Part shown: positions 25,606 through 34,718 of the stretch, in pieces | Layout: each line of letters starts with the position of its first letter | How positions within the stretch are numbered: the stretch's first letter is position 1 | From: an uncultured Clostridia bacterium | GTDB lineage: Bacteria > Bacillota > Clostridia > Christensenellales > UBA1242 | Assembly (NCBI GenBank): GCA_946496065.1 | Contig: CAMMFF010000007.1 | Location: 1,690 to 65,689, forward strand | Direction: 5' to 3' | DNA length: 64,000 bases | Translations under genes and position numbers: made by a program | The notes under the pieces: model-generated | The model's database searches: none | What the model saw: the letters and a program-made list of their open reading frames with translations, nothing else | What the model was told of the DNA's origin: nothing

Positions 25606-26118
25606 CTACTTTGCCAAAATTTTCATGATGTAAATATAATTACTGCTTTTCATATCACTGATGCCGGTGTATTTATTGCTGTAAAAACTGATTTGCGTGC
25701 AATTTCCAAAACTTATCACCCTTTTATTGTTTTGCGTTGTGATTACGAAATTGAAACCATAAAGAGTGGTTGAAGTTCTTGAATTTCCCATAATTGTGAA
25801 TGCGTTTGGCTCCAAATCAGAAATATCAAATTCTTTGAGGTGATAATCTCCCTCGACCATAAGGTATACTTTTAGTTGGGTGTATGGCATTAAATCCGGG
25901 AATTCACTGATAATTCCAATGCTTCCTTTAATGCCAGAAGAGCGGTTTAAATTTATGTTTGGGTCATCACTTGAATAGTCGTAAAGGGTTGTCCAATCTC
26001 CATCTTGTGGAGAAGAGCCTCCACCAGTATTCCCGGTTCCGCCACCATTTTTTGTTAGATAAGATAATTGTTTTTTGATTTCATCAATTTCTGCTTCCAG
26101 AATATCATAACTTGCCAT
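25606..26118 (-). CDS. hypothetical protein: coiled-coil head, Gly-rich linker, beta-rich C-terminal domain
   Basis: AAAGGAG SD before MASYDILEAEIDEIKKQL; GGGTGNTGGGSS linker; phage-fibre-like layout (inference). Confidence 0.65.
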   Translation of the reverse strand: MASYDILEAEIDEIKKQLSYLTKNGGGTGNTGGGSSPQDGDWTTLYDYSSDDPNINLNRSSGIKGSIGIISEFPDLMPYTQLKVYLMVEGDYHLKEFDISDLEPNAFTIMGNSRTSTTLYGFNFVITTQNNKRVISFGNCTQISFYSNKYTGISDMKSSNYIYIMKILAK

Positions 26119-26177
26119 AAAAAACTCCTTTTGCACTTTATTTTAAATTGTGAATAAGGAGTTTTCAATTTTTTATG

Positions 26178-26852
26178 TCAATTTTCTGGTTTTAAATGTG
26201 AAGATTTTTGTTTTTTCAATTTAACCTTCTTGTTTTTCATAAAAAGCCAAGCAAAGATAATGCCAAGCAAAGCAATGATAATTATAATGCAGGTGATGAT
26301 TGCTGGGTTGATTCCATCAGGGGAGATGGTATCTGTTTTTAAATATCCATACAAAACTTCATTTTCATGGACAAAGGCGATGGCGTTAAATTCTTCTTTT
26401 CCGTTGAAACCTTCATAAAGAAAGATTCGTTCACCCTTGCCTAAAGTGATATCACTTTCCACCATTCCATTGTCTTGTTTCCAAAACACTTTGCTTTCTG
26501 TGTTCGTTTGCCCATTAAAACTTGGTATTGCGGTTATAACATTGTTTTTTTGTGTCAATAAGTCTGCGAAAACATATCCTTCAAGTTCTCCATGTGTGAT
26601 TTTGTAGAAGACAAAACCTTCATTTTCAAACTCTTGTGGGGCATCATTTTCCATTTGAACATAAACTTCTTCGTCATGTTCAATTTGTCCAACTTTTGCA
26701 GAAGCAAAGTCGGCAGATTCAAAAACAGAAGCTCTGTTTGCTGTCACAACGTATATTTCTTGAGTATTTTGCGCAAATGCATTTTCCACTCCAAAAAAAG
26801 AGCAGAACGTACACAAAAACAACAAAGAGAAAACAAAGAATGATTTTTTCAT
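26178..26852 (-). CDS. secreted/membrane protein with two SH3b-like repeats and C-terminal TM anchor
   Basis: Signal peptide MKKSFFVFSLLFLCTFCSFF; repeats ...VYV..../...GYVFADLL and ...LYGYLKTD; start 26852 chosen because 26876 lies inside the promoter. Confidence 0.65.
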   Translation of the reverse strand: MKKSFFVFSLLFLCTFCSFFGVENAFAQNTQEIYVVTANRASVFESADFASAKVGQIEHDEEVYVQMENDAPQEFENEGFVFYKITHGELEGYVFADLLTQKNNVITAIPSFNGQTNTESKVFWKQDNGMVESDITLGKGERIFLYEGFNGKEEFNAIAFVHENEVLYGYLKTDTISPDGINPAIITCIIIIIALLGIIFAWLFMKNKKVKLKKQKSSHLKPEN

Positions 26853-26858
26853 ATAAAT

Positions 26859-26887
26859 ATTAAACCAAATTGACATGACAAAGTCAA
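26859..26887 (-). promoter_or_regulatory. promoter TTGACT-17-(TGg)TTTAAT, 6 nt before ATG 26852 (leaderless candidate)
   Basis: Canonical spacing read directly on minus strand; no SD. Confidence 0.55.
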
Positions 26888-26991: not shown

Positions 26992-27984
26992 ATGTGGATT
27001 TTATATGCGTCAATTTATGGAATATTAATTGGTTTTTTTACAGTTTTAAGAAAAAAAGCAACTGAAAAATCAAATGTTTTGTTTGTATTGGCATTTTCCA
27101 GCACTATTGGTTTTTTGCTTATTGGTTGGAGTGCTGGAGAAGCGTTTTTATTAAATTGGCAGGGGATTTTGTCAATTTTAGGGAAATCTTGTGCAGTGAC
27201 ATTGTCCTGGATTTTTGAATTGTATGCCTTGAAAAATTATTACATATCATCTCTTCAGCCCATAAGTGCAATAAAGATAATTATTTCCTTTGTTGCCAGT
27301 TTGCTTATTTTTGGTGAACAATTCATTTGGTGGAAATTAATTGGTGTTGCAATTATTTTTGTAAGTTTGATTTTGTTAAATCTTTATGACAGACGTTTGA
27401 TTAAAAATGGTCATGCATACATAAAAAATTTTGCCGGTGTAAACAGCATTCTGAAATCATCCAACAAATATGAATTTCAAAGTTTAAAAGGGCAAGGAGT
27501 AGTGAAATTGTCACTTGTTGGCAATAATATTCAGAAAAATATAAACAAAAAAAGAATTAAGGCAATTATATTTTTTGTCCTTGCTTGTCTTTGCAGTGAA
27601 ACTTCCGCAATTTTGGATAAGTTAATCATTGACCAAGTTTCAACAAGTCAAATGCAATTTTGGTTTATGTTTTTTGTGAGCGTAATTATTTGGGTCGCCT
27701 TTTTTGTTCTTTGCATAAAAGAAAAAAGAATGCTTGTATGTAAAGCAGATTGGAAAAATTGGGCAATGTATATTTTCCCAGTTATTCTTATCGTGGCTGA
27801 CAGACTTTTGTTTACCGCTCTTTCTCAACCAGATGTTCTTGTTTCAGGGGTGGCAATTATAAAACAATTGTCAACGGTTGTATCTGTAATTTTTGGTGGA
27901 ATTTTGTATAAAGAACCTAAACTTCAATATAAGTTGATATATTTGGCATTTATTTTGGTAGGCATCGTTATTGTTGTTATTTGA
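26992..27984 (+). CDS. EamA/DMT-family transporter with long hydrophilic central loop
   Basis: Two 5-TM halves, EamA-like; ~60-aa Lys/Asn-rich insert. Confidence 0.7.
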   Translation: MWILYASIYGILIGFFTVLRKKATEKSNVLFVLAFSSTIGFLLIGWSAGEAFLLNWQGILSILGKSCAVTLSWIFELYALKNYYISSLQPISAIKIIISFVASLLIFGEQFIWWKLIGVAIIFVSLILLNLYDRRLIKNGHAYIKNFAGVNSILKSSNKYEFQSLKGQGVVKLSLVGNNIQKNINKKRIKAIIFFVLACLCSETSAILDKLIIDQVSTSQMQFWFMFFVSVIIWVAFFVLCIKEKRMLVCKADWKNWAMYIFPVILIVADRLLFTALSQPDVLVSGVAIIKQLSTVVSVIFGGILYKEPKLQYKLIYLAFILVGIVIVVI

Positions 27985-28111
27985 AGCCGGGGATACATAA
28001 AGCGAGCATGTGCACCATCAGACTATTTCCAGGCACGGCGAGAAGATGTCAAGTCAGGACAGTATGATTTTTAAATTTTAAGAGGGAAATACATAATTCT
28101 GTAGATATAAA

Positions 28112-28138
28112 GAAAAAAGCATATCATTTGATATGCTT
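28112..28138 (-). terminator. rho-independent terminator closing the minus-strand cassette
   Basis: AGCATATCA / TGATATGCT stem, T6 run on minus strand, 10 nt after stop at 28149. Confidence 0.8.
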
Positions 28139-28148
28139 TAATTAAGTT

Positions 28149-29180
28149 TTATTGTAACCAATCTCTTTCGGTTGTTTCATCCCATATATCTTTTAAAAGT
28201 TTACCATCAATTTTAGCATTGTTTATAAAATCTTCCTTTGTCTTAAATGTTTGCAAATGTCCACCATTGAAATCATTCATTTTAATGATTTCCTCATCAT
28301 TTTCAGAAGCAAGAATGACTTCATAATATATATTTTTGTATTTAAATTGAACTTCACTATAAAAGAATAATGCTTCAACAAAATCATCAAGATTAGGCTC
28401 AAAAGGCCTACCTTCGCTATAAAGTTTTTTTGCTTTATTTATTGAAATTAAGTTTGGGTAGATAACTCTGTTTTTAAATTTATTTGCAAATTTATCCAAT
28501 CTCCAACCGCAGTTTTGGCATTCTCCATTTCCATATTGGTCTTTTAAACATTTTGCTTCACACACAGGACATTTCGTTTTGTATTTTCTTTTAAATAGAC
28601 TCTCCCTTCCACAAACTGGGCATGTGCCGTCATATGATTCAATTGTCACATAATGTCCACACTCGCATTTATAGTTTGCCATTGAAAATCTTTGAGATGA
28701 CTTTATTATTAATTTTTCTACCACATTATAAATTTGTTCGAGATTATCAAAGTCGGCATAGATAATAAATTTTGTATCTTTTGATTTTTCGATATTGTTT
28801 TTTGTTTCTTTTAAATCTTCAGAGTTATAAAGTTCTTGCTGATAATGAAATCCATAAATAAGATATTTGAGGTTTGCAAAAACTTCCAAATCAAGAGATA
28901 AAATTTCTGCTTTATTTGGATAAAGTTTGATATATCCGATATAGCCTTTGTTTGTATAGACATCAAAAAAGACCTCCGTTTTTATTCCTTTCAGCCTAAA
29001 GCGGATAATAGGAATAGGATATAATTCATTAGTAAATTGTTTACCAATTTTTATTCTATGTCCATAATGAAAATCTAACGCGTGGTCAACACAATTCTTA
29101 CCAAGGAATTTTGACATTTTTTCCATTTTTTCAAATGCAGTCGCGTATAATTTGTTTAAATTTTTAACTGTTTTTCTCAT
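28149..29180 (-). CDS. hypothetical protein: unknown N-domain + double zinc ribbon + C-domain paralogous to the 150-aa neighbour
   Basis: CECG..CPVCG, CPVC..GNGECQNCGW; C-terminal 140 aa align with ORF 29230-29682. Confidence 0.7.
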   Translation of the reverse strand: MRKTVKNLNKLYATAFEKMEKMSKFLGKNCVDHALDFHYGHRIKIGKQFTNELYPIPIIRFRLKGIKTEVFFDVYTNKGYIGYIKLYPNKAEILSLDLEVFANLKYLIYGFHYQQELYNSEDLKETKNNIEKSKDTKFIIYADFDNLEQIYNVVEKLIIKSSQRFSMANYKCECGHYVTIESYDGTCPVCGRESLFKRKYKTKCPVCEAKCLKDQYGNGECQNCGWRLDKFANKFKNRVIYPNLISINKAKKLYSEGRPFEPNLDDFVEALFFYSEVQFKYKNIYYEVILASENDEEIIKMNDFNGGHLQTFKTKEDFINNAKIDGKLLKDIWDETTERDWLQ

Positions 29181-29187
29181 ATTTTAT

Positions 29188-29196
29188 ATTATATCA
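29188..29196 (-). promoter_or_regulatory. extended -10 TGaTATAAT, 7 nt before ATG 29180 (leaderless candidate)
   Basis: Minus strand aTGaTATAATataaaatATG, no SD. Confidence 0.45.
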
Positions 29197-29229
29197 TATT
29201 TTTTCCGCACAAACAAACATTTTTAGTTT

Positions 29230-29682
29230 TTATAAATAGCAAGGATTTTCAACTTTGTCCCAAATATCTCGGACATATTCATTGTCAATTTTTGCGTTTT
29301 GGATAAAGTCTTCCTTGTCTTTGAAATATGCAACTTCATTATCGTTTGGTCCCCAACCCATTTCAATTCCATTGTCGCCATGTCTAAATAGACAGAACGT
29401 TAAATTTTTATATTCAAATCCTGTTTCGCCATAAAACACAAATGCTTCAAGAAAATCATCTAAATCAGGTTTTATTGGCTTATTTTCTTTATATAATTTT
29501 TTTGCTTTGTTTAGGGAAACTAAGTTGGGGAAAACTACCATATTCTCGTTAATTTCTCCAAGTCGATTATTATACCAGCCACAATGATGACACTCCCCAT
29601 TTCCTGTTTTGCTAGCAAGTAGAGTTTTTCCACAAACATCGCATTTTTTTTCAAATATTTTATCATATTGATTGTATTTCAT
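29230..29682 (-). CDS. hypothetical zinc-ribbon protein (immunity-like small protein, inference)
   Basis: CDVCG...GNGECHHCGW; AAGGAG SD 12 nt after upstream stop; paralogue of C-half of 28149-29180. Confidence 0.7.
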   Translation of the reverse strand: MKYNQYDKIFEKKCDVCGKTLLASKTGNGECHHCGWYNNRLGEINENMVVFPNLVSLNKAKKLYKENKPIKPDLDDFLEAFVFYGETGFEYKNLTFCLFRHGDNGIEMGWGPNDNEVAYFKDKEDFIQNAKIDNEYVRDIWDKVENPCYL

Positions 29683-29694
29683 AATTGTCTCCTT

Positions 29695-30015
29695 TTAACA
29701 ATAATGCATATTTGTTTTTTCTCCGTTTGGACCTATGTATTCTGGTCTAGGAGGATGCACTTTATCTTTTAACCAATCCCAGTAATGGTCATGAGGAAAG
29801 GTGTGATTATGATGAGAGTCGTTGTGTTTCCAATCTCTATCCCAAATAGCTTTGCCATCAGAATCATACCATCGCTGTTGTAATAATTCTCCAGTTTTTT
29901 CATCATAATAATCCGTTCTAGAATTTGGAGAGCAACCTTCAATGTCTGGTATATTCTTTCCAAAAGGTCCATATATAGGGGAATTAATTCCGCCACTTGG
30001 TTTACACATTCCCAT
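29695..30015 (-). CDS. hypothetical His/Trp/Asp-rich 106-aa protein with one YD-like repeat
   Basis: RWYDSDGKAIWDRDW and HNDSHHNHTFPHDHYWDW; AGGAGG SD; ATG overlaps upstream stop (TAATG). Confidence 0.65.
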   Translation of the reverse strand: MGMCKPSGGINSPIYGPFGKNIPDIEGCSPNSRTDYYDEKTGELLQQRWYDSDGKAIWDRDWKHNDSHHNHTFPHDHYWDWLKDKVHPPRPEYIGPNGEKTNMHYC

Positions 30016-30206
30016 TATAGCACCTCCTGTGGCAAAATTTCAAAGCTTTTTGAGATTGTTTCTCCACCTATGCCAATAATTTTGAATTTTAGATTTTTGC
30101 CAATTAAGTTTTTAACTTTCAATTCAGTTGCAAATAGTCCGGCGGTATTATATTTTGTTTTTATCTTTTTCTCATCTAAATACCATTCAACTCTGTCAGC
30201 AAACAA
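30015..30206 (-). CDS. 63-codon ORF, probably the frameshifted C-terminal beta-rich part of the HNH protein
   Basis: No SD before TTG; frame open from 30236; joins to upstream frame by a 1-nt shift near 30206-30208. Confidence 0.4.
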   Translation of the reverse strand: MFADRVEWYLDEKKIKTKYNTAGLFATELKVKNLIGKNLKFKIIGIGGETISKSFEILPQEVL

Positions 30207-30832
30207 TGCTTGATTTGAATAATTCCCTGATAGTTATCTACACCAATAGAGACAATTTTAGGGGAACCAATTAAGTTCTCGTTTCTTTTTATTTCAAACA
30301 AACTTTTCATATCGTTATAAGAAAGCGTGTCCCAATCAATATTCTCATAAGGATTTTTTATTAGGGGAATATTGTTTTGTTTGATCTCAATTCCGCTCCC
30401 GCCAAATTTTTCTAAATCTGCCAATATTTTCCAACGATATATAGAATTTCTTTCGTTATATTCAAGCAAAGCCTTGTTGAGATGACTTGCAAATTCCATT
30501 TCGGAGCAATTATTAACTTTCATAAAATGCCTTTGTGCTTCTTCGCCATAGCCAAGCCTAACAGAGTTTTTGAAATGTTTAACTCCATGACAGCGTGAAC
30601 AAATTGCAACAATATCTTTTAAAGTTTGCGTTTTCTTTTCTATATTGAATTCCCATTCTTCGTGAACATCAAGGTCGTTTGTTTCAAAACCACAAATTTC
30701 GCATTTGCCTTTTGCTCTTTTAAGTGCAAATTCACGTAGTTTATTCCAATCTTTTTTAGATAGCGTTTTGCTAAAATCATTACTCCAAGCACCTTTTGGG
30801 AGCATATTTATAGTTAGTATCAAATCTTCCAT
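30176..30832 (-). CDS. HNH-type zinc-finger endonuclease-like protein
   Basis: CEICG...VHEEWEF...ICSRCHGVKH (CxxC...H...CxxCH..H); AGGAG SD overlapping upstream stop. Confidence 0.7.
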   Translation of the reverse strand: MEDLILTINMLPKGAWSNDFSKTLSKKDWNKLREFALKRAKGKCEICGFETNDLDVHEEWEFNIEKKTQTLKDIVAICSRCHGVKHFKNSVRLGYGEEAQRHFMKVNNCSEMEFASHLNKALLEYNERNSIYRWKILADLEKFGGSGIEIKQNNIPLIKNPYENIDWDTLSYNDMKSLFEIKRNENLIGSPKIVSIGVDNYQGIIQIKHCLLTELNGI

Positions 30833-30841
30833 AATCCGCTC

Positions 30842-31579
30842 CTATATCTCTGGGTAAAGTTCGCCGGCAAAATATTTTCTGGTAAACTCGCTTAATCCAA
30901 TCTTTTTGATAAGTTCTTCTCGGTTAAATGGGTCAATTGCTTTAATGTTTCCTTTCATTTCTTCAAAAGGTGTTCCATAGCAAATTATGGCACTTGGCTT
31001 AATTTTTTCCATCATAATTTCATAACCTTCCATGAAGCCCTTTTTATTATCTTCTCTTGTGTAGGTTGACACTGCTACAACTGACCCTTCTTCAACTCCG
31101 TCACAAAAGAAATCAAAACAATCATATGAACCCCAAGAAATTGTTGGAATTACAAGCATACCTTGTTTTTGCCAAAAAGCACCGCACCAACGATTTTTGA
31201 AAACGCTGTCGATTTGTCTAGCAAGTGGCATATCTTTGTATGTGCTAAATTCAGGAGTAAGCAAAGCATAGTATTGGTCTAGTTTTTCAAGTGCTTGCTC
31301 AGGTTTTTCATAGACAGTTTCAAAATTCCAGTCGTAAGTGAAGAAGTGAATTGTTTTATTTTTATTTTCTTCATCATCATTTTTTGTTTTTAAATAACTT
31401 AATAACTCAATATTATCTAAGTCTATATTTTGTTTTTTGATTAGTGGCATTCCATGTTTCCCACTTTGTTCAAACTCATTTCTCACAAGTTTTTGTTTCT
31501 TTTTTCGCTTTTCTTCTTCATAATCATTTTCATTTTCGTTATGAGAAAAAAGCGAATTTAATTGTTCGTTGTTAATCAT
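30842..31579 (-). CDS. DUF4417-like protein with charged low-complexity N-terminus
   Basis: IHFFTYDWNFE...LLTPEFSTYKDMPLARQI..FKNRWCGAFWQKQGMLVIPTISW recalled as DUF4417 signature; AAGGAG SD. Confidence 0.65.
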   Translation of the reverse strand: MINNEQLNSLFSHNENENDYEEEKRKKKQKLVRNEFEQSGKHGMPLIKKQNIDLDNIELLSYLKTKNDDEENKNKTIHFFTYDWNFETVYEKPEQALEKLDQYYALLTPEFSTYKDMPLARQIDSVFKNRWCGAFWQKQGMLVIPTISWGSYDCFDFFCDGVEEGSVVAVSTYTREDNKKGFMEGYEIMMEKIKPSAIICYGTPFEEMKGNIKAIDPFNREELIKKIGLSEFTRKYFAGELYPEI

Positions 31580-31688
31580 TTTATTCTCCTTTTATTAATG
31601 TCCTTAAAGCAAAAAGAGATTAACAATGAAATTTTGGCTTTGCAATGTTTTGTGACATCTTTTTTTATTTTGTTATATAAAAAACTTT

Positions 31689-31701
31689 TGTTTAATAAAA
31701 T
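31689..31701 (+). promoter_or_regulatory. -10-like boxes (TGtTTAATA / TAAAAT) 5-9 nt before ATG 31707, no SD
   Basis: Read directly. Confidence 0.3.
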
Positions 31702-31706
31702 ACAAT

Positions 31707-32396
31707 ATGAAATTTTTAATGGTTAGAAAGCGGACGCTATGCATTATTTTGGTGAGTGTGATTTTAACCTTCTCGATTGTTGGCGTTTTTTATGCTGTCA
31801 GGATGACAAGTTCGCCGAAAGCACAATATACTATTGTCGTTGACGCTGGGCATGGTGGAAAAGACGGCGGGGCGGTTGGAAAGGAAACTGCTGTCACAGA
31901 AAGTTATTTGAATTTGCAATATTCTTTGGTTTTGAAAAATTTGTGTGAACAGTATGGTTTTAAAGTCGTTTTGACTCGCAGTGACATGAATGGTCTTTAT
32001 TCTCCTTTTGCCAGCAACAAAAAGAAAAGTGAAATGGAAAAGCGTAAACAAATCATTGAAAATGCTGACACTGATATGGTTGTCAGTATTCATATGAACA
32101 GTTATTCTTCTTCACAGTCAAGAGGAGCACAAGTTTTTTATGCCGATGGTTCAGAAAATGGACAATTTTTGGCTGAACAAGTGCAAACATCTTTGAACAA
32201 AAACATTGAATATGCAAAGAAAACAGCAAAGGTAGGAGATTTTTATATTCTTAATTGCACAGAAAAACCGAGTATTTTGATTGAATGTGGTTTTTTGTCC
32301 AATTCGGAAGAGGAAGTGCTTTTGCAAGATGAGAACTATATGCATGATTTTTGTTATAACGTTCTTTGTGGAATTTTGCTCTATTTTTCTTTTTAA
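31707..32396 (+). CDS. cwlD: N-acetylmuramoyl-L-alanine amidase (Amidase_3, CwlD-like)
   Basis: N-terminal TM, IVVDAGHGGKDGGAVG, SIHMNS, ECGFLSN motifs. Confidence 0.75.
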   Translation: MKFLMVRKRTLCIILVSVILTFSIVGVFYAVRMTSSPKAQYTIVVDAGHGGKDGGAVGKETAVTESYLNLQYSLVLKNLCEQYGFKVVLTRSDMNGLYSPFASNKKKSEMEKRKQIIENADTDMVVSIHMNSYSSSQSRGAQVFYADGSENGQFLAEQVQTSLNKNIEYAKKTAKVGDFYILNCTEKPSILIECGFLSNSEEEVLLQDENYMHDFCYNVLCGILLYFSF

Positions 32397-32718
32397 ATGT
32401 TGTGCTACAACAATTAATTAAAAAAATCTTATCTTTTAAGGCATTTTTTTGTTTAATTTTTATGTAAAAATCATAAAATCATATTCTTACTAAATTTTTA
32501 TATATTCCAATAATTAACCACCTTCTTTTATATTTTCATATTAATCAAATAAACTCATATTAAAATAAGCATTTTGATAGCATATTAAATTGAATTATTA
32601 GTATATTCTGATTTGTAAAATTACAATAAAAAATTTGAATAAAGATGATATATTATGATGATATACTATATTTATTATTTGTTTAAATTAAAAAATTTAA
32701 AAAATCTTTGTCAAATAC

Positions 32719-32748
32719 TTGACTAAATTTGTAAATAAATGATAAACT
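32719..32748 (+). promoter_or_regulatory. candidate promoter TTGACT-18-(TGa)TAAACT for the lipoprotein gene
   Basis: Read directly in 380-nt A+T-rich spacer. Confidence 0.35.
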
Positions 32749-32777
32749 AATCATATATAAAATTATAAGGAGGAAAT

Positions 32778-33659
32778 ATGAAAAAAATTTTGAAAAAATC
32801 GCTTAATGTTTTTGCAGCGTTGGTTGTTTTGGTTATTAGTGCATTTGCTCTTTCAGCATGTGGTGATAAGCCTTCTCCATCTTTTGAAGCAGCAAGCAAT
32901 GTAAAAGCAACAACGATTGAAATTATTGATGACTTTTTCGAAAGAGTTTACAATAATTCATCAGTACTAGGAACTAAAACTACTTACTCTGTTGAACAAA
33001 TTCAAAACAAAGTTGCAGATTTTGAATACTATGTAGAAGTTGGAACAATCAAAGATATAAATGAGGTAAAATCAATTTCATTGAATGATACATCATTTAC
33101 AGAAAATCAAACATTCTACCTTTCAATTGGTAATGCAAACCAATTATTAGACAAAGTTTACTATGTTGAAGAAAGCAAGCTTTATGTAGCCGCCCCTGTA
33201 GTTGCTTTTGAAACAGTTGACAATGCAAAAATAAAAATCAACAATAATGAATTTAATTTTGATTTAGATGTAACAATAGATCAAATTAATTTAACAAATG
33301 TAGCATTTAATACTGGTGCTGATAACACTGCTAGCAAAGTTTCTGACACTGAATACAATTTAACAATTAAAAGTGGTACAGAATACGCAGGCTTGTATTA
33401 TAACGGCGCTTCTACAAGCGATACAATTATTACAAAAAGAATGTTAAATGGCGTATTAAGTGGCTATGGTATTGTAAATCCAGTTAATGGTTCAAACGGA
33501 GCTTGCTCATACTTTTACCCTGTTGGTTGGGTTGAAAATCCAGCAGAAATAAATTGTGAAAAATTTGATGGTGCTACTTTTGACTATTCATTATACATTG
33601 TAAATCAGCAAAAATTAGCAAATGTAACATTAAATATTGATGTTGATATTGTAAAATAA
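32778..33659 (+). CDS. lipoprotein, hypothetical (first segment of a longer interrupted frame)
   Basis: AAGGAGG SD; lipobox LSAC after signal peptide. Confidence 0.75.
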   Translation: MKKILKKSLNVFAALVVLVISAFALSACGDKPSPSFEAASNVKATTIEIIDDFFERVYNNSSVLGTKTTYSVEQIQNKVADFEYYVEVGTIKDINEVKSISLNDTSFTENQTFYLSIGNANQLLDKVYYVEESKLYVAAPVVAFETVDNAKIKINNNEFNFDLDVTIDQINLTNVAFNTGADNTASKVSDTEYNLTIKSGTEYAGLYYNGASTSDTIITKRMLNGVLSGYGIVNPVNGSNGACSYFYPVGWVENPAEINCEKFDGATFDYSLYIVNQQKLANVTLNIDVDIVK

Positions 33660-34007
33660 GTTTCTACATATTCTGAATTAACTAGTGCTTTGTACAATGG
33701 AAAAGCAATCATTAAACTTTATGTTTATGAAGGAACTGCTCAAATTAAAGGCGGACATTAAGCAATTAAACAAGTTTATGGTGCAGACAAACCATACGAG
33801 TTTGTTTTAAACTTATTAGATGAAAATCGTGAAACCGGAACAGCATCTATAACAACATCTATAGTAGTAACTGGTGGAACATTTGAAAAGTTCAACCCTG
33901 CAGATTGTAAAGCAGAAGGTAAAGGAACTAACTTTGTTGCAGAAGGTTATACTTCTAGATTACAAGAAGGTAGTGAAGATATTTATGAAGTTGTAAAAAA
34001 TTCATAA
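33660..34007 (+). pseudogene. in-frame continuation of the lipoprotein gene past TAA 33657 and TAA 33759
   Basis: 33 + 81 further sense codons in the same frame, no start codon inside, terminator only after 34007. Confidence 0.6.
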
Positions 34008-34016
34008 ATTAGTATA

Positions 34017-34051
34017 AAAGAAGAAAACACAATGGTTTTCTTCTTTTTTTT
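34017..34051 (+). terminator. strong rho-independent terminator
   Basis: 12-bp perfect stem AAAGAAGAAAAC / GTTTTCTTCTTT plus T-run. Confidence 0.85.
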
Positions 34052-34323
34052 ATCATTACAGTGCATAAATTAAATCAAAAGACTTTAGTTTATACAAAAT
34101 ACTTTGATTTATTAATATTAAAATATATCTTTCGTTTTAATAACTATATCAGGAGGAAAAATAATATTATCGACTGACTATGATAAAACTTATGATATAG
34201 AAAACGAAATAATAATTCCTTTTGTTGACGCCTTAATTCGCAGTCAAATATTGCACCCATAAATTTAAAAATATTGTCATAAATTGTTGAAAATAAAAAT
34301 ACATATAATCTATGAGGCGTATC

Positions 34324-34574
34324 ATGGATTATGAAAAAAATAACTTATATTAAGCGAAGCGAAATATTTAATAAAAAACAATTCAACAATTCGAGCGACA
34401 GCAAAGCATTTTGGATTACCCAAAAGCACCTTGCATAAAGATATACACACTTACTTGCCAAAACTTAACAAAAGGTTGTATTTTAAAGTTCAGCAACTTT
34501 TCGACAAAAATTTTAGTATAAAACATATTCGAGGTGGCGAATCCACTAAAAAATATTACCTTGCAAAAAAATAG
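34324..34574 (+). pseudogene. spoIIID: spoIIID-like HTH regulator gene with N-terminal frameshift
   Basis: GAGG SD + ATG 34324 gives MDYEKNNLY-stop; the -1 frame (34344-34574) encodes LILSEAKYLIKNNSTIRATAKHFGLPKSTLHKD...HIRGGESTKKYY with no usable start. Confidence 0.6.
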
Positions 34575-34718
34575 CATATAGTTTAAATTTAAAATAAAAA
34601 TGTCAATCTTATCTATAACTTTTCAAAGTATTAAAAAAGAGTTTTACTGCTAAAAAGTAGAACTCTTTTCTTATTTATTCTGCTAGTCTCAAAATGATTT
34701 AATCTTTAGATAAGATTT

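Follow-up and report, generated by a model that had tools for sequence, protein, structure and literature searches.

A stretch of 64,000 nucleotides (nt) from an uncultured Clostridia bacterium, here called the window, carries a compact region of minus-strand genes between an EamA gene and a gene for a CwlD-like N-acetylmuramoyl-L-alanine amidase. The region encodes a DUF4417 protein, an HNH nuclease, a small His-rich protein that we call sm, and two paralogous proteins with a CPCC zinc ribbon (Table 1; positions without a locus label are those of the whole window). We describe these genes, follow them into other species, and weigh the proposal that they are mobile cassettes in which sm and CPCC genes would act as toxin and partner. 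The best-supported division of the region is into two adjacent cassettes, one with the order DUF4417-HNH-sm-CPCC and one formed by the 343-amino-acid (aa) CPCC paralogue alone.

An initial annotation of this DNA had placed six minus-strand open reading frames (ORFs) between the EamA and CwlD-like genes. All of these ORFs exist there, but they represent five genes rather than six, because the 63-codon ORF is an HNH fragment left by a 1-nt deletion. The nuclease that the annotation counted among the cassette genes is therefore present as a gene, but it is broken in the window and decaying within the species, and the 343-aa gene, rightly placed at the end of the unit, is better read as a separate single-gene cassette. 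The proposed coupling signals are all present in the DNA: the TAG stop of DUF4417 lies inside a TAGGAG, with a 9-nt gap to the HNH gene; the HNH gene meets sm on TAATG (30015-30017), with AGGAGG upstream; and a 12-nt gap holding AAGGAG separates sm from the 150-aa gene. The -10-like box before the 343-aa gene and the hairpin that closes the unit, a 10-bp stem plus T-run, were located as well, and a similar hairpin follows the junction motif (described below) in the cassettes of loci L029, L041, L054, and L092.

Two other promoter-like patterns occur in the region. On the minus strand at 30014-30043, a strong sigma-70-like TTGAAA-18 nt-TATAAT with an upstream TG (11 of 12 matching) has its -10 element over the sm start codon, within the conserved segment that spans the HNH 3' end and the sm 5' end and recurs in front of orphan modules. 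Spacers between cwlD and DUF4417 (31580-31706 in the window; L027-L083) recurrently contain TG(G/T)CA-N8-TTGAAA, possibly a common promoter element.

Profile searches upheld the assignments of DUF4417 and the paired zinc-ribbon paralogues and gave a mixed result for HNH. The 245-aa product matches Pfam DUF4417 (PF14386) over profile positions 2-177 of 183 (E=2.9e-51, 174 bits versus a cut-off of 28.9). The HNH product matches PHROG 5200 at E=7e-27 and scores 16.7 bits with Pfam HNH, under the 21.4 cut-off; the Cys/His motif (CxxC...H...N...H...CxxC core) can be seen by inspection, and the gene is frameshifted in the window. Over its first 136 aa, the product shares about 37% identity with HNH proteins encoded by free-standing genes in large enterobacterial phages. 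The two CPCC paralogues share 43% identity over 141 aa and score 26.3 and 29.1 bits with Pfam Cys_rich_CPCC (PF14206; cut-off 24.5). The longer of them, of 343 aa, consists of an N-terminal domain of about 190 aa without assignment, an extra zinc ribbon, a CPCC ribbon at 203-255, and a phrog_3711-type C-domain at 263-335. All products of the region match PHROG families, and none has a secretion signal. The neighboring amidase finds its best match in TIGR02883 spore_cwlD, aligned over the full length (E=1e-50), but its 172 bits do not reach the 221.55 required for an equivalog; it also matches Pfam Amidase_3.

The initial annotation could not match the cassette to a named system, and a PADLOC-DB 2.0 search with all six predicted products (E<=1) likewise returned zero matches. 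An Rfam search of 27000-33000 found no match. Sequence and profile searches of the PDB gave nothing for DUF4417, HNH, or sm, and the sole match for a CPCC protein was chain I of 8ey4, a 70-aa chain that is the one solved structure bearing the name of a CPCC-domain protein, at a nonsignificant E=2.2 (residues 203-256 of the 343-aa protein). A skew in Leu codons, earlier judged by hand, has now been counted: TTA plus CTA make up 47% of Leu codons in the cassette versus 11% in 60 background ORFs of the window (chi-square p=6e-20). Two neighboring genes carry an equal skew, and the G+C content of the cassette at third codon positions (GC3) is low by only about 1 standard deviation.

Table 1. Genes and other features of the cassette region and its borders
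Feature	Position	Strand	Remarks
DUF4417 protein, 245 aa	30842-31579	minus	Pfam DUF4417; best-conserved cassette gene
HNH nuclease gene, pseudogene in the window	30015-30832	minus	272 aa when unbroken; zinc-finger HNH N-terminus plus C-terminal domain
HNH 218-aa ORF	30176-30832	minus	5' part of the broken gene
63-codon ORF (63 aa)	30015-30206	minus	C-terminal remnant of the HNH gene
sm, 106-aa His-rich protein	29695-30015	minus	free-standing; predicted toxin-type domain
150-aa CPCC protein	29230-29682	minus	CPCC zinc ribbon 13-66; phrog_3711-type C-domain 73-146
343-aa protein	28149-29180	minus	putative orphan immunity-like CPCC paralogue
Conserved recombination segment (putative)	29987-30090	minus	HNH 3' end, Shine-Dalgarno sequence, sm 5' end
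Extended -10-like box TGATATAAT	29188-29196	minus	separated by 7 nt from the start codon of the 343-aa gene; read from DNA
Bidirectional terminator hairpin AAAGCATATC-N4-GATATGCTTT	28116-28139		between the 343-aa gene and the 19-nt motif
19-nt junction motif GATGTCAAGTCAGGACAGT	28045-28063	plus	marks the distal cassette end
Divergent intergenic spacer DUF4417/cwlD	31580-31706		conserved in a subset of cassettes
cwlD codons 1-53	31707-31865	plus	segment travelling with the cassette; ends at the DAGHGG-x-D insertion point
CwlD-like N-acetylmuramoyl-L-alanine amidase gene	31707-32396	plus	intact; target and host gene of cassettes
EamA gene	26992-27984		flanks the cassette on the side opposite the amidase gene

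Recurrence, transfer, and decay of the gene set

Scanning species-representative genomes with a DUF4417 alignment returned at least 194 loci, and the best 80 of the 194, from uncultured Clostridia, Christensenella/Catabacter, Christensenellales, and 'Candidatus Onthoplasma', were examined. HNH comes directly after DUF4417 in 75 of the 80, sm is followed by a CPCC gene in 58, and all four genes occur in 57; 43 loci have the order DUF4417-HNH-sm-CPCC, 14 have the cyclic variant sm-CPCC-DUF4417-HNH, and 34 have at least two CPCC genes. The cluster of DUF4417, 272-aa HNH, sm, and CPCC is kept around divergent sm members (47-63% identity). Co-occurrence of the DUF4417, HNH, and 106-aa families, which the initial annotation had suggested examining, is thus widespread across species.

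A second cassette type encodes another small protein of about 105 aa, then a CPCC ribbon fused to DUF4417, then HNH. This small protein (104-109 aa, MEKAPSEYAKYWTSPE...; L088 7290-7610, L092 7271-7585, L035 13388-13717) matches nothing in Pfam or NCBIfam and possibly represents a further family of small toxin-type proteins. A different arrangement is seen in L107 (MT835546.1, 'Bacteriophage sp.'), a phage-collection record in which the stretch read looks bacterial, with long, unannotated ORFs that by eye appear chromosomal. Its order is a helix-turn-helix protein, a possible peptidase-like ORF (also by eye), a 216-aa DUF4417 protein, a 139-aa His-rich protein, and a 101-aa protein resembling the C-domain of CPCC proteins; the block has no HNH gene.

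Cassette genes are far more alike between species than are the core genes of their hosts. In comparison species where SpoIIE, TilS, and CwlD are 46-68% identical to those of the window, codon identity of the core genes at conserved residues is about 0.45-0.55, which amounts to saturation. In the same species DUF4417 is 87-95% identical, with a codon identity of 0.61-0.80, and HNH is 71-89% identical; across species whose CwlD is 40-68% identical, DUF4417 remains at 81-95%. The sm and CPCC proteins of the window are 95-96% and 91-92% identical to those of modules in L031 and L039 (codon identity 0.91-0.96), species with core proteins about 50-60% identical. These values show the cassette genes to be, by the measure of sequence similarity, younger than the divergence of their hosts. 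The foreign origin put forward in the initial annotation is supported because codon usage is atypical and because cassette genes are closer between species than core genes.

Within the species, the cassette is constant in position. Exact-match look-ups placed it at the identical eamA/cwlD position in dozens of same-species metagenome contigs, and it was at this locus in every displayed contig of the window's species (15 near-identical full-length loci compared; 23 and 22 contigs read). The idea of a strain-variable accessory island does not survive this result; together with the versions that lie beside cwlD in other species (below), it amounts to a situation that the annotation itself had listed as refuting. 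What varies is the integrity of two genes. Strains L004, L007, L014, and L015 have a single 272-aa HNH ORF that stops on TAATG, and relative to them the window is without one A (ATCAAAGC to ATCAAGC, at about 30212). Among the 15 loci, HNH has suffered three independent lesions (the 1-nt deletion at about 30212, an extra G at 30401, and a nonsense change at codon 97), and three loci share a 7-nt insertion in DUF4417; all 15 have unbroken copies of sm, the 150-aa gene, and the 343-aa gene. Every one of these four independent inactivating lesions thus hits DUF4417 or HNH, and the other genes have been spared (binomial p of about 0.05). Loss confined to this pair fits genes that serve spread and not maintenance, a judgment based on four events.

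One piece of neighboring DNA does vary among strains. The segment of about 2.3 kb between cwlD and an RNB-family gene (32397-34718) contains a gene for a 293-aa lipoprotein-like product at 32778-33659 (GC3 0.17; TTA plus CTA 55% of Leu codons) and otherwise about 1 kb of low-GC noncoding DNA. It is missing in same-species strains L004, L005, and L011-L016, where the amidase-RNB gap is about 54 nt, and is a true strain-variable indel.

The sm protein, DUF4417, and the CPCC partner

The sm family comprises 125 clusters of free-standing proteins of 52-165 aa (mostly 90-108 aa), and none of these clusters has a Pfam match. The window's sm carries two motifs, RWYxxDG and PH[DE]HxW, and begins with MGMCKPSGG, a conserved stretch. 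Residues 16-81 of sm are 42% identical to residues 609-666 of a 676-aa toxin of the Paenibacillus larvae phage Fern (E=5e-8 in a phage database search, 2e-13 pairwise), with both motifs present in each. In the Fern toxin a PT-TG pre-toxin domain (497-555, E=2.5e-11) lies directly N-terminal to the sm-like part, and a 73-aa ORF begins 12 nt downstream of its gene. A weak match to the C-terminus of the PHROG 18811 'toxin' family (E=1e-6) was also found. These alignments show sm to be a homologue of the predicted C-terminal toxin domain of a PT-TG-type toxin. An AlphaFold2 model of sm is confident (predicted local distance difference test score [pLDDT] of 92.6); Foldseek found no match to it in the PDB at E<=1e-3, and its best fold match in BFVD is a 406-aa 'minor capsid protein' (E=7e-4). 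With its confident model and no solved-fold match, sm would represent a new small toxin-type domain family.

DUF4417 keeps similar company elsewhere. A library-wide search gave 2,496 cluster representatives, and among 86 diverse ones DUF4417 is fused to ParB_N (8), barnase-type ribonuclease (2), LHH nuclease, Ntox50, Ntox37, colicin-E3-type 'Cytotoxic', and CPCC domains. The toxin fusions occur solely in other proteins and not in the window cassette. Because it is fused to such varied domains elsewhere, DUF4417 is shown by these architectures to be a constant N-terminal partner of diverse toxin domains. Relatives of DUF4417 are common in phages, including directly upstream of terminase genes in Streptococcus and Lactococcus phages, and rare on plasmids (5 records); phage groups that carry DUF4417 do not overlap with those that carry the cassette-type HNH. 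Viral-contig scans with the DUF4417-toxin fusions P0286 and P0254 yielded no usable context. The AlphaFold2 model (pLDDT 93.2) has a weak likeness to TIM-barrel nucleic-acid enzymes, a hint only. In the literature, DUF4417 appears only as an unknown phage domain fused to ParB, and a role as fixed partner of varied toxin domains would give this phage-common domain its first functional context.

The gene that follows sm varies along with it. Over 48 modules, the identities of sm and CPCC proteins co-vary (Spearman 0.68), and neighbors in a single array differ strongly, with identities between modules of only 47-50% for sm and 30-44% for CPCC. Variability begins after the conserved segment that holds the last 25 or so HNH codons, the Shine-Dalgarno sequence, and the first nine sm codons (MGMCKPSGG). 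Orphan sm-CPCC modules are each preceded by a 50-95-nt truncated copy of this segment, and HNH 3' fragments stand before orphan modules in L030, L039, L041, L057, and L063; in the window an orphan partner gene (343 aa) is present and the HNH stub is absent. The toxin-immunity reading that the initial annotation offered from gene layout is now backed by homology and architecture, namely, the toxin match of sm, the DUF4417 fusions, the co-variation of sm with CPCC, and the arrays of orphans. The widespread CPCC zinc ribbon may accordingly be proposed as part of a cognate partner.

Cassette junctions at the 5' end of cwlD

Of the 80 loci, 34 have the block next to an intact cwlD, and versions of it are also linked to cwlD in L017-L026. 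In the closest relatives of the window, cassettes sit at cwlD codon 52/53, in the DAGHGG motif, and many cassettes carry at their far end a second version of cwlD codons 1-52/53 (Met to TIVIDAGHGG-x-D), oriented as in the intact gene. The displaced piece is followed immediately by GATGTCAAGTTAGGACAGT. At the junction point, intact cwlD reads GGN GGN nnn GAY GGN GG and cassette junctions read GGN GGN nnn GAT GTC AAG TTA GGA CAG T. A 19-nt motif at this border recurs in 17 other species-level loci, where it marks about 25 ends of cassettes, and its single occurrence in the window, with 1 mismatch, compares with 0 expected by chance. Moving inward from the motif, the window has the terminator and then the 343-aa gene, as does L092. 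Alignment scores for a cwlD 5' remnant in the 60 nt upstream of the window motif were within the shuffle range, and this candidate was rejected. Also set aside were the motif as a phage attP, as it occurs at chance level in 2.9 million viral contigs (IMG/VR), and a terminal inverted repeat (GATGTCA, also in the cwlD-DUF4417 spacer), which is not general across cassettes.

Some loci contain several such units in series. The L092 array reads small protein, CPCC-DUF4417, and HNH; a cwlD piece; a 342-aa homologue of the window's last gene; a piece; two unknown genes; a piece; two more genes; and intact cwlD. L035 holds three cassettes. Genes of the 343-aa type also form single-gene cassettes in L117, between cwlD and the motif, and in L092, where the 342-aa homologue lies between cwlD pieces. 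Reduced sites are known as well: cwlD has only a 95-aa CPCC C-domain remnant beside it in L124-126, and in the cassette-free site of L127 it is next to proS.

The cwlD gene itself records these events. Outermost displaced pieces are 42-57% identical to the present N-terminus, and present N-termini are alike across species. Compared with the window, the N-terminal 51 residues of CwlD are bimodal in identity, at either 0.65-0.75 or 0.31-0.53, and the rest of the protein is at 0.45-0.63 except in L030 (0.75) and L087 (0.84). This pattern shows the current cwlD N-terminus to be mosaic relative to the rest of CwlD and, to judge from the identities, cassette-borne; each cassette therefore brings its own cwlD 5' end and promoter region. 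We found no paper that ties cwlD to an integration site, and the initial annotation mentions neither the insertion into cwlD nor the 19-nt motif. The locus would be an insertion hotspot inside a sporulation gene of abundant uncultured gut Clostridia, with integron-like accumulation in the absence of a visible recombinase.

Several further observations concern the surroundings of these arrays. In one subclade, the gene immediately before DUF4417 is a truncated tyrosine-recombinase gene that retains the C-terminal HGLRHT...LLGH region (L062 7353-7850, L066 37-402, L077 273-716, L091 7107-7871); L064 has a full 399-aa integrase downstream of the block, and a motif search also flagged L069 and no further loci. 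In the window, genes for a 232-aa SH3-like membrane protein and a 176-aa protein occupy 25606-26876. In L035 and L088 their homologues border the array, immediately beyond its outermost displaced cwlD piece, and the EamA gene of the window lies between them and the motif, where other species hold the displaced piece. The cwlD-array cassettes at L092 11167-13901 carry unrelated cargo, one a 212-aa protein with an HPNCHC motif and a 124-aa partner, the other a 165-aa protein and a 262-aa DUF4116-repeat protein (E=1.4e-91), which look like further toxin/partner-type pairs.

Competing explanations and comparison with known systems

We favor, with a probability only slightly better than even (roughly 0.55), the reading that the region consists of mobile polymorphic toxin-partner cassettes with a conserved DUF4417-HNH core, accumulating at the 5' end of cwlD. 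Under this proposal, sm would act as a small metal-dependent toxin through its conserved His and Asp residues, and the CPCC protein encoded just downstream would neutralize it, the pair stabilizing the cassette or helping its carrier to outcompete others. Orphan CPCC genes that have been retained, the 343-aa gene among them, would preserve immunity to displaced toxins. New sm-CPCC modules could arrive by recombination in the conserved segment of about 100 nt, as CT/immunity modules do in contact-dependent inhibition (CDI) and Rhs systems. For whole cassettes, the way into cwlD would be a duplication at the DAGHGG-coding site: a circle that contains the cwlD 5' segment could insert in Campbell fashion, or a break at the DAGHGG codons could stimulate copying; the duplicated segment spans about -16 to +159 and is compatible with both routes.

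DUF4417 and HNH would be the candidate machinery for the insertion event, and we suggest that these two alone decay in the species because they become dispensable once the cassette is fixed. A bolder version of this idea, which we regard as doubtful, is that they form a new recombinase-independent insertion machinery that recognizes the DAGHGG-coding sequence, the 19-nt motif, or both and drives duplicative, integron-like cassette capture. If so, each cassette would equip the target gene with a promoter and 5' end of the cassette's own, and DUF4417 would be a new DNA-acting enzyme fold, which would explain its place beside phage packaging genes and its ParB and nuclease fusions. A small number of cloned genes, together with oligonucleotide substrates, would suffice for direct tests of both the toxin-partner pair and the insertion mechanism.

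A number of observations sit uneasily with the favored reading. On the toxin side, sm is free-standing, has no signal peptide or recognizable trafficking or secretion domain, and has a catalytic-looking core that is conserved rather than hypervariable, and both P0242 and the second cassette type have the CPCC ribbon on the same polypeptide as DUF4417, so that a pure immunity role for CPCC is a poor fit. On the insertion side, the window displays the junction motif only, with no recognizable displaced cwlD piece; no integrase or recombinase was found in or adjoining the cwlD arrays, including the window cassette; no circular cassette was found, with a metagenome scan for the motif giving only 4 short chromosomal-looking contigs; and no pair of empty and filled sites within one species was found. 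Intact cwlD still holds the presumed target sequence, and a Foldseek search of the PDB with the DUF4417 model gave nothing at E<=1e-3 (weak TGT and EndoIV/UVDE likeness). About half of the 80 loci are not beside cwlD, and a few of them have tyrosine-integrase remnants alongside; the cwlD insertion mode is therefore lineage-specific.

The missing secretion signals would be natural if the genes formed an intracellular conflict system, a toxin-antitoxin or abortive-infection anti-phage island acting inside the cell rather than between cells, with DUF4417 as sensor or nucleic-acid enzyme, HNH and sm as effectors, and CPCC proteins as antitoxins or regulators. DUF4417-fused effectors (RNases and HNH-type nucleases) belong to the pool of defense systems too, relatives of DUF4417 are common in phages as arms-race genes would be, one orphan module stands beside a GmrSD-type gene, and mobile cassettes gathered in a hotspot resemble a defense island. 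We nevertheless think this explanation rather improbable, given the empty PADLOC search with all six products, the persistence of sm and CPCC while the nuclease and DUF4417 decay, and the fact that divergent toxin-like/partner arrays with stubs of the upstream gene typify polymorphic toxin loci and not known defense systems. The same inactivating mutations of HNH and DUF4417 could instead mark an inert remnant of a prophage or integrative element, its DUF4417 and HNH genes derived from a pre-packaging region and its sm and CPCC genes leftover morons with no present function. The position of DUF4417 just upstream of terminase genes in Streptococcus and Lactococcus phages, the PHROG matches of every product, and the truncated tyrosine-integrase genes beside the block in L062, L066, L077, and L091 agree with such a history. 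Yet sm, CPCC, and the 343-aa gene are unbroken in all strains, a compact set with intact ORFs is retained in 57 of 80 species, and the phages with DUF4417 and those with the HNH type are different groups; moreover, the 19-nt motif is not above chance in viral contigs, and, among the Pfam families listed for 81 ORFs flanking L058-L106, none is a phage structural or replication family, bar integrase remnants. The ORFs read in the cwlD-linked arrays and over several kb around the window cassette show no phage genes, and the initial annotation was right that no integrase or phage gene accompanies the cassette in the window. We hold a remnant without function to be quite unlikely.

Least probable, and very unlikely, is a vertically inherited operon tied to cwlD, with a role, for example, in spore-cortex maturation or sporulation-specific DNA processing. 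The cwlD linkage does hold in 34 of 80 loci plus L017-L026 despite differing outer flanks, the cassette and cwlD share a promoter region, and DUF4417 is better conserved than CwlD. Against vertical descent, synonymous-site similarity and 95% identical modules in distant species point to transfer, and at cwlD the cassettes stand in tandem, some with unrelated cargo, among displaced 5' pieces of the gene. Roughly one locus in two lies away from cwlD, cwlD occurs without a cassette (L127) or with only the 95-aa remnant (L124-126), and pseudogenes have arisen within the species.

Comparison with described systems would place the cassettes with the polymorphic toxin-immunity kind, in a form that lacks both a fused secretion domain and an integrase. 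The framework for such loci is reportedly that of Zhang, Aravind and co-workers in 2012. As in CDI and Rhs systems, the sequence for a variable toxin-type domain has directly behind it a small partner gene that co-varies with it (here after a 12-nt gap with a Shine-Dalgarno sequence), divergent modules form arrays, and orphan modules stand behind a truncated conserved upstream piece. In CDI, the cdiA-CT/cdiI boundary between conserved and variable sequence comes after VENN; the equally sharp boundary here comes after MGMCKPSGG. The role of the constant module falls to DUF4417, which elsewhere is joined to many different toxin domains. Unlike CDI and Rhs toxins, sm is a separate protein of about 100 aa coupled translationally to the HNH gene, not the end of a large exported protein; the cassette has no recognizable secretion or delivery domain, its constant genes are DUF4417 and the HNH nuclease, and the unit as a whole is mobile, in the form of a small cassette. 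A second parallel is with toxins carried by phages. The C-terminal 58 residues of the PT-TG toxin of Fern (gp26), also followed by a small ORF, are 42% identical to sm. MuF or 'minor capsid protein' toxins, said to have been described by Jamet et al. in 2017, resemble the cassette genes in two ways: the closest viral fold to sm bears the annotation 'minor capsid protein', and DUF4417 is like MuF, being phage-associated, near packaging genes, and fused to toxin domains. Here, however, no phage is present at the locus, sm is free-standing, and DUF4417 is unrelated to MuF.

The arrays at cwlD resemble integrons and tandem islands in that successive cassettes occupy one site, the newest beside the intact target, with the same repeated boundary (cwlD 5' piece and 19-nt motif, hairpin nearby) and some cassettes of cargo only. 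Tycheposons, for instance, are tandem islands at partial tRNAs. In contrast to integrons, neither IntI nor any other integrase was found at or next to the cwlD arrays and the boundary is the cwlD 5' segment plus the motif, and the repeat differs from those of integrons and tandem islands in being a 5' gene segment that replaces the N-terminus and promoter of a protein-coding gene. Homing endonuclease genes differ in other ways: the HNH gene here always travels with DUF4417 and usually with cargo, and, to the cost of our reading, the target is regenerated rather than disrupted, with a duplicated gene segment left behind. They are nonetheless close to the cassettes in several respects, as the HNH protein is akin to free-standing phage HNH proteins and is encoded beside a conserved host gene, the nuclease degenerates once fixed, and insertion falls exactly at the most conserved catalytic-motif codons of the host gene (DAGHGG-x-D), the kind of target typical of homing endonucleases.

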